This document shows positions 1 to 24,716 of a stretch of DNA of 64,000 nt, piece by piece; the stretch's first letter is position 1, and every line of letters begins with the position of its first letter. The notes under the pieces were generated by a model. It did no database searches, was not told the origin of the DNA, and saw only the letters and a program-made list of their open reading frames with translations. The stretch lies in assembly GCA_964605145.1 (NCBI GenBank), contig CAZSBG010000006.1, positions 28,788 through 92,787 of the forward strand, read 5' to 3'. The translations under genes and the position numbers were made by a program. Source of the stretch: an uncultured Cytophagia bacterium. Its GTDB lineage: Bacteria; Zhuqueibacterota; Zhuqueibacteria; Thermofontimicrobiales; Thermofontimicrobiaceae.

Positions 1-563
<563 letters not shown>

Positions 564-731
564 TCAATCATCCAACGCAAAAAATTTTCAAGCATTCAAA
601 GGATTTTCTATATAAAAACATCTAATTTATCGTTTTATTCCTGATGCAAGACCAGCCAGCGATGCCGGCAACGCGCGCGGGTTTCAGAAGCATGCCACGT
701 GACTGGTCGGCTTGTCTAGTGCAAACGATTG

Positions 732-1460
732 TCAGGCTGAGGTGTTAAACAGCCCCGCAAACAAGACAAACACCCCGGTGAGCAACAATCCAATCCCTCC
801 CATAACACCATAGATCCGAAGGAGGACCCTGGTTGAGTCAAACCGCCATTTCTGTAAATGACCATAGTAAGCCAGCCCGTCAACACCTGAAAATCCCACT
901 AAGGCGGCAAGGCATGGAATTGGGTTCGTGCTCAAGATGGAAATGTACACTAATGAGCGGCTCGAAATATGGATAGTTGTTGCAAGAACTCGCTCCAATA
1001 CCGACATCCACTGGATTTGCGGGTCGCCCTGAGACGATTCCGTTACATCATTGTAGTGATCCTCCAGATTCGTTCCCTTGAAAGGGTTACCAATAAAGGG
1101 CAAAATCACTGCCTCTACCATTCCCGCCCCTGCTCCAATCCCAATTAGCTCGGCCAAAGTATCAGGTTGCCAGAAGAACCAAAACAACAGCGCCGCAGCA
1201 CCCAACTCAGTGCTTGAAGAAAGTAAACCCTGAAACAAAGATATACTCTTGTAGCTGACTCCTCTTCGGACTGCGGGTTCAACGAAAATGTGGTGGATTG
1301 CAACTTTTAGGAGTACTGCAACTATCCAAGCGAAGGCGCCGTAGCCCACTGTTATTTTTGTGGGCACACCCCACCATGAAGCCAAAACGTAGACGGGGGC
1401 CACCCCGACAAGAACCGAAGCGACAGCAGTTACTTTTTCGACCATTTCAGTTCTTGCCAC
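732..1460 (-). CDS. Hypothetical polytopic integral membrane protein
   Basis: 242-aa ORF with at least six hydrophobic helices and no recognisable catalytic motif. The track start is GTG; an in-frame ATG five codons downstream at 1445 is an alternative. The gene is noticeably more GC-rich than the window average. Confidence 0.5.
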   Translation of the reverse strand: MARTEMVEKVTAVASVLVGVAPVYVLASWWGVPTKITVGYGAFAWIVAVLLKVAIHHIFVEPAVRRGVSYKSISLFQGLLSSSTELGAAALLFWFFWQPDTLAELIGIGAGAGMVEAVILPFIGNPFKGTNLEDHYNDVTESSQGDPQIQWMSVLERVLATTIHISSRSLVYISILSTNPIPCLAALVGFSGVDGLAYYGHLQKWRFDSTRVLLRIYGVMGGIGLLLTGVFVLFAGLFNTSA

Positions 1461-1494
1461 AGATACCGATTACCTTTCAGGCTAAATTTATTCT

Positions 1495-1664
1495 TTAACC
1501 TGAATTATTCACAAATTTCAATCAAAAGATGTTTAAATTAATGTTATTAATCTAATTAATCAGATATATGAAATTTAACAAAGTTAGATATACTGAATTC
1601 GGAATGAAGCACCATTCAGGCTACCTGGATTCCTTAATGCATTACAATGAATAATCTAGGTTAA
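1495..1664 (+). mobile_element. MITE-like element copy A: 162 bp (1499-1660) with ~13-bp imperfect terminal inverted repeats (CCTGAATTATTCA ... TGAATAATCTAGG), flanked by 4-bp direct repeats TTAA
   Basis: About 80% identical over its full length to the reverse complement of 23709-23870. Both copies are exactly 162 bp between the inverted-repeat ends, and both are flanked by a 4-bp direct repeat matching YTAR (TTAA here, CTAA/TTAG at copy B). There is no coding capacity. Confidence 0.7.
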
Positions 1665-2020
1665 AGAGATTGAATTTTTTAAGTACTGAATTGAAATTAT
1701 TAAAGTTCATATTATAACCAATTATTTTGAAAAATGCAAATGTTTTTCATCCTGAAAATCATTTTTTTGACCATTTTTTAGCCAATTCAACCGAAGCGAA
1801 TCTAATTGATAATCAAATAGTTACTTTGTTTTCAACACTTCTCTTGCGCGGTCTGAAAGTGCTCCGTCTTAATTCGTTTGAAGTTTATTGGTTTATACCC
1901 TTCCTTAGCTTAATGTTATATAAAATCCTTTTATTGACTTGATTAATACTTCAATTTTGTGTATATTTTATTCTTTTGAAAAGTCCTCTCTTCTTGTGAG
2001 ATAAATTTTTAGGAGTAAAT

Positions 2021-3436
2021 ATGAAATTAATATCAAAGTACTTCGTCGTCGCTATTCTTTTTTCATTTTTATCTGTCGCAAACCTCTTTGCACTTTCGCC
2101 GGGTGACTCCGATAAAACTCAAATCGAAACCTACAAAACCATTGCCAAAGCAATTGTCGATACCGCCATGATAGACGGCCATGCATATTCCATGCTGACT
2201 GAATTGTGCACGGATATTGGGCCGCGATTGAGCGGCTCGCCACAGGCTGCGGCCGCCGTGGAATGGGCCCGGCAGGTTATGTTAGATTATGGATTTGAAA
2301 ACGTTCATCTCCAGCCTGTGCTGGTTCCCCGCTGGATTCGCGGGGATGTTGAAGAAGCTTCCATAGTGAACTCACCCACAGTGGGTACGGTACCGCTTGC
2401 AATTAGCGCACTTGGCAGCAGTGTGGGCACACCTCAAATGGGAATTGTTGCTGAAGTGATTGAAGTAAAAAGTCTGGAAGAAGTCAAGAAAATAGGGGAG
2501 AAAGCAAAAGGTAAAATCATATTTTACAATCGTCCCATGGATCCCACCACGATGAGAACATTTTCAGGATATGGGGGAGCGGTTGATCAGCGGACGCGGG
2601 GAGCAGCAGAAGCCGGAAAAGTTGGCGCGGTTGCCGTGTTGGTGCGCTCTGTCACCACGCGATTGGACAAAGTGCCGCACACCGGTGTTATGCACTATGA
2701 AGAGAATGTTCCCAAAATTCCCGCTGTTGCGGTCAGCACTGTGGACGCAAATTTGCTCAGCAATGTTTTGAAAGAAGATGGGGCTGTGCGTGTGAGAATT
2801 GCTCTCGACTGCCAGCAGAAACCGGATATAATTTCGTACAATGTCATAGGCGAAATTAAGGGATCTGAAAAACCGGAAGAGGTTATCGCTCTGGGTGGGC
2901 ATCTCGATAGCTGGGATGTTGGGCATGGCGCACATGATGATGGTGCCGGATGCGTCCAGGCAATTGAGGCGCTCAGGCTCATCAAAGCCTTAAATTTAAA
3001 ACCGAAGCGCACGCTCCGGGCCGTGATGTTCATGTGCGAAGAATTTGGACTCCGCGGAGGCCCGGCTTACGCCGACAGCGTTGAAAACAGCGGACCCAAA
3101 CACATCGCTGCCATCGAATCGGACCGTGGTGGATTAACTCCCCGGGGTTTCACCATTGGCGCGGACTCGACAGCATTTGAGAAAATTAAAACTTGGTCGC
3201 CTCTGTTCGAATATATCGGCGCGGACTGGTTCACCAGGGGGGGGGGCGGACCGGATATTTCTCCACTGCGGAAACTGGGGGTCGCGACGATTGGGCTTAT
3301 GGTGGATTATCATCGCTACTTCGACTACCATCATTCTGCCAATGATGTGTTAGAAGCTGTCAACGATCGTGAATTGGAACTGGGAGCCGCGGCTATGGCC
3401 ATACTGGCATATCTTCTGGCCATGGAAGGAGTTTGA
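2021..3436 (+). CDS. Secreted M28-family zinc aminopeptidase with PA domain
   Basis: N-terminal signal peptide; HLDSWDVGHGAHDDGAGC and ESDRGG metal-binding motifs typical of M28 peptidases. 471 aa. Confidence 0.85.
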   Translation: MKLISKYFVVAILFSFLSVANLFALSPGDSDKTQIETYKTIAKAIVDTAMIDGHAYSMLTELCTDIGPRLSGSPQAAAAVEWARQVMLDYGFENVHLQPVLVPRWIRGDVEEASIVNSPTVGTVPLAISALGSSVGTPQMGIVAEVIEVKSLEEVKKIGEKAKGKIIFYNRPMDPTTMRTFSGYGGAVDQRTRGAAEAGKVGAVAVLVRSVTTRLDKVPHTGVMHYEENVPKIPAVAVSTVDANLLSNVLKEDGAVRVRIALDCQQKPDIISYNVIGEIKGSEKPEEVIALGGHLDSWDVGHGAHDDGAGCVQAIEALRLIKALNLKPKRTLRAVMFMCEEFGLRGGPAYADSVENSGPKHIAAIESDRGGLTPRGFTIGADSTAFEKIKTWSPLFEYIGADWFTRGGGGPDISPLRKLGVATIGLMVDYHRYFDYHHSANDVLEAVNDRELELGAAAMAILAYLLAMEGV

Positions 3437-21500: not shown

Positions 21501-23656
21501 GTTCCCTGCAATGGAGTTGGCGTATCCAGATCTCCGGTGGTTCCCCAGTCTGCAACCACTTCTCGAATGTAATTATCATACTGGTCGTATCCTGCAGCGT
21601 AAAGGGATATTTGATCATCCAGATTCAACATATAATCACCAACCTCGGAGCCCAAACCACCCGGATTATCCCGAATGACAATGTGATTCAATCCATCTGG
21701 TTTCACATTGAAATTATTCGAAACACCACTCTCGCCGGAGCCGGCTGCAGTGATTTTATTATCCGTATATTTTTTTGTGATTGTTAAATTTCCTGACCAG
21801 GTGCCTGCACTGAAATTTCCTGTGGAACCGGGGCTCAAAGAACCGGACTCATCCGTCAAACTGACCGCATTTGTAAATCCGGTCACTATATTTTCGTATG
21901 CATCGTTTGCTTCAATAGTCACCGAGAAAGGTGTTCCAGCAGTCTGCGGGCTGGAAATATCTGAAATTGAAAAATGATCCAGTGATGCCGGGTTCACATT
22001 AAAGCTGTTTGACGTTCCGTTTTTATCGCTGCCATTGACAATGATTTTATTACTGGAACCAGTTTTCGTGACAATCACATTACCATTCCAGCTCCCTCCA
22101 CTGAAACTGCCTGAAACCTGGGGAGTGAGTGTGCCTGTTAAATCACTCATCGCCACAGGACCGGCGTACGTTGGTATTGTATTCCCTTCTCTATCCTCTG
22201 CCGTTACAGTTATCGAAAAAGAATTACCGGCTGTTTGTGGTGTTGAAATAGCGTCAATAGTAAAATGATCTAACGCTCCCACTTGTACATCAAAAGCATT
22301 TGATGTCCCGGTTTCGCCTCCGCCGGATCGCTGAACGCTGATCTGATCATTGGTAAAATCGGCTGTAATCTTCACCTGACCGTTCCATTCTCCGCCGCTG
22401 AAATTGTCACTCTGATTGGGCGAGACTGTCCCGCTATTATCCGAAATATCTACTTTTCCGGTAAAACTTGTTACGGTGTTATCATAATTGTCCTGGGCAG
22501 TAACTGAAATGGAAAAATATTCGCCCGCAGTTTTGGGAGAAGAAATCGGCCCGATGTAAAATTTTGCCAAACTTCCGGGATTCACATTGAATAAATTCGA
22601 TGTGCCAACTTTGGAACTCCCGGATGCTGTAATGTAATTATCGCTCTGGCTTTCCGTGATTGTTACGCTTTGCGTTAATGAACCTGAGCTAAAAATATTT
22701 GATGTTTCGTTGAGCGAACCGGTAAGATCGGTCAACAATACAGTGCCAGTAAAACTTTCCACAAGATTCTCATACTGATCCCTCGCAGTAACTGTAATGC
22801 TGAATGACGTCCCGGCCGTTTTTGGACTGGTGATTGTGTTAAATGTAAAATGATCCAGGCCGGCAGGCAAAACATCAAATTCAGATGACATGCCGGATAT
22901 ATCATTATACGTGGCTGTAATTTTATTATTCGACCTGCTTTTAGTAAACGTCACCGTACTATTCCAGACACCTGCTGTGATGCTGCCGGTAGATGTTGGG
23001 CTAATAGTATCGGTTAAATCTGTCAGCGCAACAGAAGATGTATGCGACGTGACCGTATTGTCGTATGCATCCTGTGCGGTAATTGTGACAGAAAAATTTG
23101 AACCAGCCGTTGCATCGCCACTTGTACTGACATCAAAATGATCCAGCGCTCCGGCAGCAATTGAAAAATTTGGTGTATTCCCGTCATCGATATGGGTGTA
23201 TCCCTGGGTCATGGTAATAATTTTTACGCTATAATTATCCGCATCCGGGTTATTCCCCACAGTTCCGATACTGATTTCCACCTCGGTTGATGCCGGAACT
23301 TTTGTTCCGGTGCCATCACGTTCGATCATGACCGAGTCACCATTAACATATTGTATGGAAACACCGCCATTGATACTGCCATCCTCCGAATCGGCAATTT
23401 GAACGCCCGTGAGATCGAATCCCGACGGAAAAATTAATTTAATTTTGCCATCCACCGGGATGCCGTCATCAGCATTATTCCCTGTCGCTGAAGTTGTGAA
23501 AGTAAAAGTATAAATCGCGGACTCCCCGGCAACATTATCACTCAAACTTGTACTCATATTTGCTAGATCACCTTGCGCAAATACTATAGTTGCATTCCCT
23601 GAAAAAATGAGAATTATTACTATTACGATCCCTGCTCTCAGATGTCTTATCCTCAT
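15566..23656 (-). CDS. Giant (~2,696-aa) cell-surface protein with tandem Ig-like repeats and a C-terminal type-A T9SS sorting domain
   Basis: Signal peptide MRIRHLRAGIVIVIILIFSGNATIVFA (ATG at 23656; the track start at 23671 is TTG). At least five ~95-aa tandem repeats share the motif LDHF..ISSPQTAG..FS.TVTA.D.Y.N...F.G.V.L. The last ~90 aa (NYPNPFGE...VYVARISTGNGKSALIKIAVIK) match the Por_Secre_tail / TIGR04183-type CTD. Confidence 0.85.
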   Translation of the reverse strand: MRIRHLRAGIVIVIILIFSGNATIVFAQGDLANMSTSLSDNVAGESAIYTFTFTTSATGNNADDGIPVDGKIKLIFPSGFDLTGVQIADSEDGSINGGVSIQYVNGDSVMIERDGTGTKVPASTEVEISIGTVGNNPDADNYSVKIITMTQGYTHIDDGNTPNFSIAAGALDHFDVSTSGDATAGSNFSVTITAQDAYDNTVTSHTSSVALTDLTDTISPTSTGSITAGVWNSTVTFTKSRSNNKITATYNDISGMSSEFDVLPAGLDHFTFNTITSPKTAGTSFSITVTARDQYENLVESFTGTVLLTDLTGSLNETSNIFSSGSLTQSVTITESQSDNYITASGSSKVGTSNLFNVNPGSLAKFYIGPISSPKTAGEYFSISVTAQDNYDNTVTSFTGKVDISDNSGTVSPNQSDNFSGGEWNGQVKITADFTNDQISVQRSGGGETGTSNAFDVQVGALDHFTIDAISTPQTAGNSFSITVTAEDREGNTIPTYAGPVAMSDLTGTLTPQVSGSFSGGSWNGNVIVTKTGSSNKIIVNGSDKNGTSNSFNVNPASLDHFSISDISSPQTAGTPFSVTIEANDAYENIVTGFTNAVSLTDESGSLSPGSTGNFSAGTWSGNLTITKKYTDNKITAAGSGESGVSNNFNVKPDGLNHIVIRDNPGGLGSEVGDYMLNLDDQISLYAAGYDQYDNYIREVVADWGTTGDLDTPTPLQGTSTMFSPATPYTSGRIYADSVSVGADSTGTFTVGAIHHVLIRDADNGAGNVVTTRTISADETLTLYAAAYDEGNVYLGPAVVDWSSDSTLAPAVLWTGSTLDFSPSTAPAHGKILAVHATAENDTTGLITVNPGVPIGEIVLHPVPEIIPADPDSFSVVTSDTIRDSDNNPISSGEYFTVSTTLGTITTPDENPGIGGTQVVSDTAGQISFVVNAGVTGGTALVQANSVVRGSAVGDTSIIISGLEILSVSSDFDKVSRNQQNITVLMAVKNHGASNATIISDGAGLEFTGPAPGYSNRSGDYIVSRNDTISVLPGNGNKTLSFLVNVKSNALTDSIQIDGFINCRVNGSSVSDVAANETDKWLVQTPPSLQFLRVKADADTVTQGTNTIISARIQNNGDATAIVDSVRFSYSNLTPPILDVSDEYALVPYPTNPTSIAGHSLDSLFFTVTVGTNATLDSITIDGKVYASDENSELPYSDLNADTTDQWYVKQASDLEIVDFYPSQRTVTSGQAENWFLNMVIRNNGGAPLRLDSARVNFTYGGSDISSEYQMLYPDTFKTSGDSLLDAGLTDTLIVTVDETGTTIGSVTIGGTVYLNDMISGQIIKSKVTGVTVQAPGELVIDYIRTSQPEVTVNQSMPWQTIISLTNNGGGDIAIDSTHLNDFVSFGDDTNYVVSFPISFETLGFFKLPSGATDSLIFSVDTTGSVAGSRTIHVSVFAEEINSQEEKTAEDSTTIKVEMPADIRILKTVNIAPNAPYVDNNQVFQIAVLVQNQGEDAAQNIKMSLISDSTSTILNPVDSLEIVQGASTDTLKFNVQASSDWIWDEVFSASIDTAFAENTPTEPDKIFISPSVDSTDTVTVQRPGKFKIVSISPSQDTVRALSPFEWQIIVAVEDSGAGFIKLDPPNREDVSIIITGNEQDDYTIVAPLEFENNPNLTLSWNGADTLIYRVTSTGVLGGMAKIKLNLSGTYLNTNTTFQVADSGAVYVRPSADVFIDFTEPVCRNINQYDIGQVNTNQAFSVRSKIRNTGGEQVDNVLVSLTAPGYIIPSVNIDNILPSGEAIATFNVAAQSVATEQVKFTVRIESAISHGSGLPATIGGASDSTALVRVHDPALLKISINKEHSIYSIGQVAPFQVQIENLGTADVDASGELALFMPQNYFVVVDQQQKSSDTTSFEINETVEWQVVPPSYASSNDTIVAKISKPPLDENTGSFALIENTDPFDSLVVRTVPLELAVESFEISSPEGALDDTLSTLQNFWVQVDIMKSENITSANARLNLPAGYRFAPGTDSIKANVADVAGWELIAPENAHSNEKWIKVLVTGTVGGDEVTASDSISVVVENRATLLIDRAWISWPSTDSTLSMGQEFDLSAIVINSGDAPLEGAAYLSIDFGATGVTTEDDTVKPFQPDIPVTWRLLAPEVETLKAPIVVTINTIPKDVNTNEKAMVPTRSKYYYVQTQQSANAWIENLRIVSPVGAIDKILSTHQSFQIEADVSWFNCTGAPSVQLQLEGGFTTPESYPKLPVGVGDQGTVNWTITTPGGTIDDQHIWMKLTAQDANSRISFTRTSDSLEVDVVRRAEIQLKGKILSPASALDGIVSTNQNFVVSAYLSKTGDANILGNFNATLTLPEGQGYSIAQDLTQTAAYNDSLFWTITAPTSERDPSNIAIDLVSWPEDENSNLPVAAEAILLKNVSIPISAEEKSVTVSMLPTTTKNTIARGDTGVSMMGLELLASGDAFSNNILFTGVKIKLKDRFGVPVTNPAQVISRVCVVNNQQNNEVFGQITAIPTSNPIEILFSQIDTLKPEIENQVQFKVDIATTAEISDFQIAIDSVNSLYLYDEESGQTPKLKNVNGQTLEALNFESEPSVIIEADFDKAFSNYPNPFGEIGRPVTNFVYYLDEDTEVKIQIYTLIGELVWSRTYSELEPQGRKGLHDSDVIWDGRNGQGYKVLNGVYVARISTGNGKSALIKIAVIK
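15569..15850 (-). other. Type-A T9SS C-terminal sorting domain of the giant surface protein
   Basis: YPNPF ... IWDGRNGQGYKVLNGVYVARI ... K terminal pattern. Confidence 0.75.
21750..23160 (-). repeat. In-frame tandem coding repeats (~285 nt units, about five copies) encoding Ig-like domains near the 5' end of the giant gene
   Basis: Recurrent nucleotide and protein-level units (...LDHF.ISDISSPQTAG.PFSVT..A.DAYEN.VT.FT..V.LTD.SG.L.P...G.FS.G.W.GN..ITK...NKI...GS...G.SN.FNVNP..L). Confidence 0.7.
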
Positions 23657-23704
23657 TTGATGCTCTTCCAAAGTTTTTGTTCGTCAATTCTTTTTCATCT
23701 GTCT

Positions 23705-23874
23705 CTAACCTGGATTATTCATTGTAATTCATTAAGGAATCCAGATAGCCTAAATGCTGCTTAATTCAGAATTCGTTATATCAAACTCTGTTAAATTTCA
23801 TACACCTCGTTAATCTTTTTAATAACATTTATTTATATATGTTTAGGTTGAAATCTGTGAATAATTCAGGCTAA
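23705..23874 (-). mobile_element. MITE-like element copy B: 162 bp (23709-23870), inverted relative to copy A, flanked by CTAA direct repeats
   Basis: The reverse complement aligns end to end with 1499-1660. Its terminal inverted repeats are CCTGGATTATTCA ... TGAATAATTCAGG, with 4-bp CTAA at 23705-23708 and 23871-23874. Its end nearest the giant surface-protein gene lies about 50 nt upstream of that gene's ATG. Confidence 0.7.
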
Positions 23875-23889
23875 AAATCAGACTGCATG

Positions 23890-24399
23890 TTATTCTTTTT
23901 CGGGCAGAATTCTGTGTATTTTTTCCTGCTTTAAAACTGATCTTTCATCTTCTATTATTTCCACTGTTATTCTATAGTTATCGGCAGGTTTTAAAGGATT
24001 TTTTACAATCGCGAACTTGACATCCACTTTTTCATTCGGTTTTATTTCTCTTCCAAGCCCGGATCTTTTCAGCGTCAATATCTGGTCATTGACCTCAACG
24101 TCAAATCCACCATTCATTGTTGTTGAGCTGGCTATCATCAATTCTGATAAATCAAACTCCGCTGGAAAAGTGACATTCAATTTTGCCGTCGGCGAAATCG
24201 GTTTTTCGATTCTAAATTCAATTTTGTAAATCGATTTTGCACTTGATTCAGGATGTCTGGCAATCACATTGACAGTATCGGCAGGTGCAGCGCTCGCCAC
24301 ACTGGTGAAAAAATAAATTATTGTAATAAAAAATAGTATTGGGATGAATCTGGTCTTCCCTGTCTCAAACCTATGATATGTTTCAGAAAGATACATCAT
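23890..24399 (-). CDS. Small secreted protein (169 aa), paralogous to the N-terminal domain of the giant surface protein
   Basis: Signal peptide, then SIYKIEFRIE...KLNVTFPAEFDLSEL...NGGFDVEVND...RSGLGREI...VKNPLKPADNYRITVEII. This aligns with the giant protein's AIYTFTFTT...KIKLIFPSGFDLTGV...NGGVSIQYVN...RDGTGTKV...GNNPDADNYSVKIIT. There is no T9SS CTD. Confidence 0.7.
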   Translation of the reverse strand: MMYLSETYHRFETGKTRFIPILFFITIIYFFTSVASAAPADTVNVIARHPESSAKSIYKIEFRIEKPISPTAKLNVTFPAEFDLSELMIASSTTMNGGFDVEVNDQILTLKRSGLGREIKPNEKVDVKFAIVKNPLKPADNYRITVEIIEDERSVLKQEKIHRILPEKE

Positions 24400-24716
24400 T
24401 GTATATTCTCCATGTTAGATTGAAAAACATGATTCGCTCTAAAAAACTTGGTTATATAATTATATTGGATTATTTCCAGTGCGTGGGTGATTTTCATCAA
24501 AAAATTAAATAATACTATCCAAAAAAATTTTCTAAGTTCAGAAAAAATATAAAAAACATATTATTTAAATTTCTGAATTGCAAAAATTATACCGATGTTC
24601 ATAAAAGGTACTCATTCAATGAGGAAATATAAGAAGGTGAAAATGCAGACTTATTCCATCATACATTCATGTGATTTGCTTGCCATGAAAAGGAATAAGT
24701 CCTGCAATTTAATAAA

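Follow-up and report, generated by a model that had tools for sequence, protein, structure and literature searches.

A putative IS1380-derived miniature transposon in the spacer of an apparent adhesin operon of a KSB1-like bacterium

The short repeat separating the gene of a small signal-peptide protein from that of a giant T9SS-sorted protein in the 64-kb window (the whole stretch of DNA analyzed, 64,000 nucleotides) is, judging from its sequence, a miniature transposon (MITE) of the IS1380 family that lacks a transposase gene. It looks like a fairly recent insertion into an apparent two-gene operon, and this IS1380-derived MITE is quite probably carried in the adhesin operon as a passive passenger. 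The segment 23705–23874 comprises exactly the element, referred to below as copy B, and both 4-bp duplications of its target site; a further copy, copy A, is found in the same window in inverted orientation (Table 1). The initial annotation had called the repeat a MITE, and it is real as such: there are two 84%-identical copies with terminal repeats and 4-bp duplications.

Table 1. Features of the copy B locus and of copy A (positions within the window)
Feature	Position	Strand	Remarks
Giant gene, 2696 aa	15566..23656	-	CARDB; T9SS type A C-terminal sorting domain
Native leader of the giant gene	23657..23704	-	Shine-Dalgarno-like GGAAGAG at 23663-23669
Target-site duplication CTAA, giant-gene side of copy B	23705..23708	.	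same 4 nt at both ends
Terminal inverted repeat CCTGGATTATTCA, end of copy B facing the giant gene	23709..23721	+	12/13 complementary to the other end
MITE copy B proper	23709..23870	.	162 bp, 27.8% G+C, non-coding
Internal dyad CTGGATT(N21)AATCCAG in copy B	23710..23744	.	arms 23710-23716 and 23738-23744
Terminal inverted repeat TGAATAATTCAGG, end of copy B toward the small-gene stop codon	23858..23870	+	
Target-site duplication CTAA, small-gene side of copy B	23871..23874	.	
Small signal-peptide gene	23890..24396	-	168 aa counted from the second ATG
MITE copy A	1499..1660	.	inverted relative to copy B, 84% identical (136/162)
TTAA duplications of copy A	1495-1498 and 1661-1664		

Both 162-bp copies share the same start and end (CCTGGATTATTCA ... 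TGAATAATTCAGG), and the termini of copy A are complementary at 11 of 13 positions. The repeat search of the window delineated the pair as two arms of 174 nt (1494–1667 and 23702–23875) with 84% complementarity. On the transcribed minus strand, the duplication on the giant-gene side of copy B reads TTAG. No ORF of at least 20 aa was found wholly inside copy B; an ORF of 40 aa (23642–23764, plus strand) merely reaches into its left end. A MITE is understood here as an element shorter than ~600 bp and devoid of coding capacity, possessing terminal repeats and a target duplication, and displaying presence/absence polymorphism of its site; in copy B, the small size and non-coding character, the terminal repeats, the duplication, and the presence or absence at orthologous sites were all observed.

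The 35-nt segment harboring the internal dyad occurs twice in the window vs. zero occurrences expected (100 shuffles); in copy A, the dyad has one mismatch relative to CTGGATT/AATCCAG. The inner arm of the dyad in copy B resembles the terminal repeat, as though it were a third, degenerate copy; ATAG and then a degenerate CCTAAATGCTGC follow it. In copies B and A (23709–23761 and 1608–1660) as well as in the related element of locus L204 (328–380), the structure appears composite, with a 37-bp mini-palindrome made up of a terminus, a loop, and a degenerate inverted terminus, next a 4-nt xTAR (ATAG, GTAG, or ATAA), and last a degenerate second left terminus (CCTAAATGCTGC, CCTGAATGGTGC, or CCTGAATGGCGA). 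The terminus CCTGC of the L204 copy pairs with an internal GCAGG, a two-sided change keeping the dyad. The composite structure may be what is left of a nested insertion, or else a transposase-binding site inside the element.

In the order of transcription, the small gene, copy B, and the giant gene follow each other, all on the minus strand. The giant reading frame is intact and starts, most plausibly, from the ATG at 23656 behind GGAAGAG; its sorting domain (TIGR04183) scored 25.5 bits vs. the cut-off of 23. The small protein is paralogous to the N-terminus of the giant protein (first 146 residues; BLASTP 2e-8, 27% identity over 136 aa) and has no match in Pfam or NCBIfam. Its homologues, 52 in number, bear names pointing to candidate division KSB1; the protein represents a conserved family (52 clusters) in KSB1-like genomes. 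On the side of copy A, the gene at 2021–3436 encodes an M28 peptidase (PF04389, 6e-24). The identities originally proposed for the small paralogue, the T9SS gene, and the M28 gene were thereby borne out. Copy B lies 52 nt upstream of the giant ATG (48 nt with the duplication excluded), in agreement with the initial estimate of ~50 nt, and its duplication on the opposite side is 15 nt away from the stop of the small gene (23890).

The history of the locus can be traced from its relatives. In homologues with protein identities of 83%, 76%, and 74%, the spacer between the small and the giant gene is 70, 66, and 67 nt long, respectively, and lacks the element. Overall, the empty junction was found in five orthologous loci (L204, L205, L206, L207, and L208; spacer 66–70 nt), which provides the comparison with insertion-free loci proposed in the initial annotation and upholds its view that copy B separates the two genes by insertion. 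Subtraction of the element and one duplication (166 nt) from the 233-nt spacer of the window yields 67 nt, matching the empty sites. At the same time, a relative with 93% identity (L203) harbors the element at exactly this junction; the copy lacks 10 bp internally, and the contig ends inside it. Since the sites are empty in the former and L203 is occupied, the insertion of copy B is younger than the split of the 83% lineage and older than that of the 93% lineage. Its retention across the split from the 93% relative fits neutrality and also fits a benefit. Judging from the ancestral spacer of 66–70 nt alone, which is so short, the small and the giant genes very probably formed one transcription unit before the insertion stretched the untranslated spacer from ~67 to 233 nt.

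The small gene is situated directly upstream of a longer gene in four orthologous lineages (L204–L208); the giant gene aligns at its 5′ end with this longer gene, whose full length the contigs are too short to display. The proximal part of the giant-gene leader is identical in the orthologues. In the giant gene, a stretch of ~55 nt (23623–23677, minus strand) that runs from the ribosome-binding site through the ATG to codon 11 is invariant (100% identity) among the window, L204, and L207 and nearly so in L208, with only 67–77% identity in the surrounding DNA. This conservation pattern marks it as a region of translation initiation or regulation under strong constraint, with the insertion point of copy B just upstream. 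Another block (TTTTTTGATGAAAATCACCCACGCACTGGAAATAATCCAATAT, 24462–24505, minus strand), situated in front of the small gene, hardly varies among four lineages; it is probably the promoter or operator of the operon and is unlike the canonical −35/−10 pair.

The termini of copy B are by no means confined to this genome. The genome scan, covering one genome per species and both termini at a spacing of 120–150 nt, revealed terminus pairs in at least 81 loci across many phyla. Those represented among the matches listed are Gemmatimonadota, Gamma- and Zetaproteobacteria, Cyanobacteria, Verrucomicrobiota, Aminicenantes, Bacteroidales, Planctomycetota, Elusimicrobia, KSB1, and others; even the finished chromosome of Acaryochloris marina (NC_009925) carries a member (L021, 5608–5770). 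Short elements delimited by these common termini, at least 76 in number, occur in many bacterial phyla; those among the matches listed are 146–176 bp long (L001–L081; termini CCTGRATTATTCA...TGAATAATYYAGG). Perfect flanking duplications of at least 4 bp accompany 43 of the 83 terminal-repeat pairs among the matches listed (about 1 in 256 expected by chance), and, in the same set, they are mostly CTAG, TTAG, CTAA, or TTAA, i.e., YTAR. The termini remain constant across these 81 or more loci; the interiors resemble one another within one genome and are unrelated from lineage to lineage. Such a combination of constant termini, unrelated interiors, and YTAR duplications is the hallmark of a family of non-autonomous elements mobilized through shared transposase-binding ends, with YTAR as the target.

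In many Proteobacteria, Verrucomicrobia, and Planctomycetes, the similarity reaches ~27 nt (…ATGAAC.TCGTCGCGAG / …CTACTGCGG). In the Aminicenantes locus L067 (3318–3493), a stretch of 176 nt holds two short family elements, nested or head to tail (…GTGAATAACTCAGGCACCTGAATTATTCA…). The widespread elements sharing these termini look like a very large MITE superfamily for which no description was found, and the family, with its IS1380-type termini, YTAR duplications, distribution from Cyanobacteria to Aminicenantes, and lineage-specific interiors, appears to be undescribed. Among the papers searched, the terminal-repeat string occurred in no bacterial one, only in a mouse paper. No published description of an IS1380-derived MITE was found in this literature, and IS1380 is absent from a 2024 review of prokaryotic MITEs.

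The affiliation with IS1380 comes from full-length elements. The scan of viral contigs for a single terminus yielded two such elements, L091 (2723–4371, 1649 bp) and L173 (776–2435, 1660 bp), with identical 14-nt termini, each enclosing one ORF of 440 or 441 aa. These ORFs scored 388 and 380 bits on the NCBIfam model NF033539 “IS1380 family transposase” (cut-off 180) and 476 and 490 bits on PF13701. Fragments of IS1380 transposases were also detected by tblastn with the L091 and L173 transposases in two other loci of the viral scan (L083 and L196), in L083 ~150 nt from a terminus. Copy B is considered an IS1380-derived MITE because its termini are common to elements encoding IS1380 transposases; the termini are also the only sequence shared by the MITE and the full-length elements. 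The length of its duplication is within the 4–5 bp of such a derivative, and duplications of 4 bp are known in the IS1380 family. The duplications of L091 and L173 are 5 bp long (CTAAA and CTCAG) vs. the 4-bp YTAR of the MITEs, so the mobilizing subgroup may differ from L091 and L173. An origin from IS5 or IS701, initially suggested by the 4-bp YTAR, was dropped, since the full-length elements with these termini belong to the IS1380 family; according to a review of IS4 and IS701, the latter has a fixed 4-bp duplication but different ends.

Other searches for the autonomous partner were negative in their respective scopes. No autonomous IS1380 element or transposase gene was detected by tblastn within the 64-kb window. 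Among the matches listed, terminal-repeat pairs 0.7–3.5 kb apart disclosed no transposase in the loci of the genome scan, and all-against-all clustering of 534 ORFs with Pfam analysis of the recurrent ones returned housekeeping proteins only. BLAST of the Acaryochloris copy against plasmids gave nothing relevant. A second viral scan (CTAG flank plus terminus) revealed no further full-length element; one new match was chance-like, and one was truncated by the end of its locus.

Besides the two copies within the 64-kb window, one more subfamily member was found in a related metagenome (L209), and L204/L205 carry a related copy. L209 was the sole additional copy with the subfamily-specific end that the metagenome scan yielded, and it is incomplete at the contig end. 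Six short-read contigs (L202, L203, L206, L209, L210, and L211) break off within a copy or at its edge, L210 terminating at the edge of copy A and L211 30 nt inside it; such breakage is expected of a multi-copy repeat. No counterpart of copy A was found upstream of the M28 gene in relatives with 89% and 82% identity. In these relatives, the left neighbor is different and the intergenic DNA upstream of M28 is too diverged to yield a clean empty site for copy A. Synteny with the 89% relative (window 1–2020 vs. L214–L217) runs rightwards from the M28 gene through genes for ThiI, rubredoxin, MetH, STAS, and a SpoIIE phosphatase; on the left, it stops at the M28 upstream region, near copy A, and the relatives possess another gene there (at least 694 aa).

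The related MITE of the 83%-identity lineage (L204 328–487 and L205 324–483; L206 begins inside it) has an interior identity of ~60–65% and the duplication TTAG. It was inserted independently in the same operon, 57 nt upstream of the small gene and right after a conserved upstream block. Relative to the downstream gene, it is turned the other way round from copy B.

The arrangement of the copies relative to the genes was the basis for a regulatory role suggested earlier. The statement that the same end of the element points to the giant gene (copy B) and to the M28 gene (copy A) is literally correct. The inference drawn from it, which is based on two copies, fails: 360 nt separate copy A from the M28 start, the divergent ORF 732–1460 is nearer, starting 35–50 nt from the opposite end of the element, and the L204/L205 copy is reversed. 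Of the family members among the matches listed, 72 of 76 are intergenic, between co-directional, divergent, and convergent genes alike, with a median distance of ~90 nt to the facing start codon. In view of these family-wide positions, a start codon at a distance of ~50 nt is the usual situation and does not call for a particular explanation.

Strong outward promoters are documented in the IS1380-family elements ISEcp1 and ISPme1, and even a ~200-bp remnant of ISEcp1 can keep one (PMC9330008); sigma-70-like promoters are also carried by Correia elements and MITEAba12 (PMC10969869). By analogy, copy B, alone or together with its flank, could serve as a mobile promoter driving the giant adhesin gene independently of the small paralogue. 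Such a role seems quite improbable. The ISEcp1 promoter resides inside the IS and not in its terminal repeat, and the MITE has only the termini of the full-length elements. The consensus scan, based on a sigma-70-type promoter that may not be valid for KSB1, found no site of at least 9/12 inside copy A or B on either strand, nor between the small and the giant gene. The best site common to both copies in a looser scan (TGGATT-N18-AATAAT, 8/12) does read toward the giant gene, with its −10 in the terminal repeat, but 8/12 matches are common at 28% G+C, and in such DNA this one constitutes weak evidence. No Bacteroidetes-type promoter (TAnnTTTG) was seen in the element by eye; the Shine–Dalgarno-like sequences suggest conventional expression signals. 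Three independent insertions 35–60 nt upstream of start codons would be in line with promoter delivery; however, closeness to starts is typical across the family in every gene arrangement among the matches listed, and the nearest start codons are faced by different ends of the element (the left one in copy B; the right one in copy A, toward ORF 732–1460, and in the L204 copy). Furthermore, the distant M28 gene has a 9/12 sigma-70-like site of its own (1939–1967).

The RNA of copy B is predicted to fold with paired termini (−36.8 kcal/mol, z = −3.84), and so is that of copy A (−31.0 kcal/mol, z = −2.4). With the flanks included, the stem of copy B extends through the duplication (−50 kcal/mol), and the ribosome-binding site of the giant gene stays unpaired. 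A module acting post-transcriptionally or by polarity might be seen in this long closing stem of termini, duplications, and flanks: cleaved in the manner of RNase III or slowing elongation, it would uncouple the giant gene from the small one or lower its expression. The lengthened untranslated spacer and the precedents of RNase III cleavage in Correia elements and of the effects of ERIC elements on mRNA decay (PMC10969869) speak for it, but such a fold arises by construction in any inverted-repeat element, and the structure common to copies A and B is the stem of the terminal repeats only, with differing interiors. No intrinsic terminator (a G+C-rich hairpin followed by a U-tract) was found in 23657–23889 on either strand or inside copy A, and copy B has the makings of neither a SPRITE-like nor an intrinsic terminator. 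The spacer RNA contains less C than G (30 vs. 39 of 233), unlike a Rho loading site, and this explanation is, on balance, unlikely. The internal dyad, proposed earlier as an RNA hairpin, is present in the sequence, but the minimum-free-energy fold leaves its arms CTGGATT/AATCCAG unused.

Two intergenic copies beside genes of signal-peptide proteins, together with negative z-scores of the folds, could also bring to mind a duplicated small RNA gene or a conserved cis-regulatory RNA instead of a transposon. This is scarcely credible, and as an alternative to the transposon origin it is effectively refuted by the target duplications, the empty orthologous sites, and the termini common to transposase-bearing IS1380 elements. 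Moreover, the interiors diverge freely (84% identity between A and B; ~60–65% to the L204 copy), no promoter or terminator flanks the element, and Rfam 15 gave no match at the gathering score in the window, with only eukaryotic snoRNA and miRNA noise (E 0.6–3.3) even at E = 10. Hence, of the roles entertained in the initial annotation (promoter, terminator, insulator, or sRNA), none gained support: there is no site of at least 9/12, no terminator, and no Rfam match, and the folds of the two copies differ. There is little chance that a weak promoter (with AATAAT as its −10) or hairpin processing uncouples the giant adhesin and that the L204/L205 insertion reflects recurrent selection for expression variants rather than target preference.

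The preferred reading, that of an IS1380-derived MITE carried passively, implies the following course of events. An IS1380-family transposase, presumably supplied in trans, would have recognized the 13-bp termini of copy B (CCTGRATTATTCA), and integration at a YTAR site (CTAA/TTAG) would have duplicated these 4 bp. The target would have been the ~67-nt spacer between the gene of the small secreted protein and its giant T9SS-sorted paralogue, both of them presumably co-transcribed, then and now, from a promoter upstream of the small gene. Copy B would ride passively in the bicistronic mRNA, its termini paired as a closed stem and the conserved ribosome-binding region of the giant gene left free. 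Most likely, its effect on expression is small, and any such effect is more likely post-transcriptional (processing or stability of the hairpin) than exerted by a new promoter.

For annotation, the value of this finding is that a hitherto unannotated repeat of KSB1-like genomes receives a place in the IS1380 family. Across many phyla, its 13-bp termini mark out a very widespread group of MITEs, apparently uncatalogued, and such MITEs break short-read assemblies right at operon junctions (six cases here). Should copy B prove to influence the giant adhesin, it would join the established cases of MITE regulation, in Neisseria and elsewhere, and would raise no new question.

The likeness of copy B to the IS1380 family (ISEcp1, ISPme1, and IS1247) lies in the terminal repeat CCTGRATTATTCA, identical in L091 and L173; the left repeat of ISEcp1, CCTAGATTCTACGT, resembles the terminus of copy B. 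In contrast to these elements, copy B is 162 bp long and has no transposase gene, with L091 and L173 measuring ~1.65 kb, and the outward promoter of ISEcp1 (TTGAAA-18-TACAAT) has no counterpart of like quality in it. The target duplication is short both in the MITEs (4 bp) and in IS1247 (5 bp; PMC3281130). The Correia elements of Neisseria are similar in their size of ~100–160 bp, terminal repeats, and short TA-containing duplications (PMC10969869). They also share the intergenic location near gene starts, the terminal-repeat hairpin, and co-transcription with the neighbors, the latter being presumed for copy B. At the same time, their sequence is unrelated and their parent family and host phylum are different; the promoters, the IHF site, and the RNase III cleavage at the terminal repeats are experimentally established there (PMC10969869), and none of these is predicted in copy B. 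With MITEAba12, ERIC, RUP, Nezha, and the MaeMITEs, copy B shares the nature of a non-autonomous deletion derivative keeping only the termini of an IS (PMC2779907), as well as the breakage of short-read assemblies and, presumably, an occurrence in many copies.
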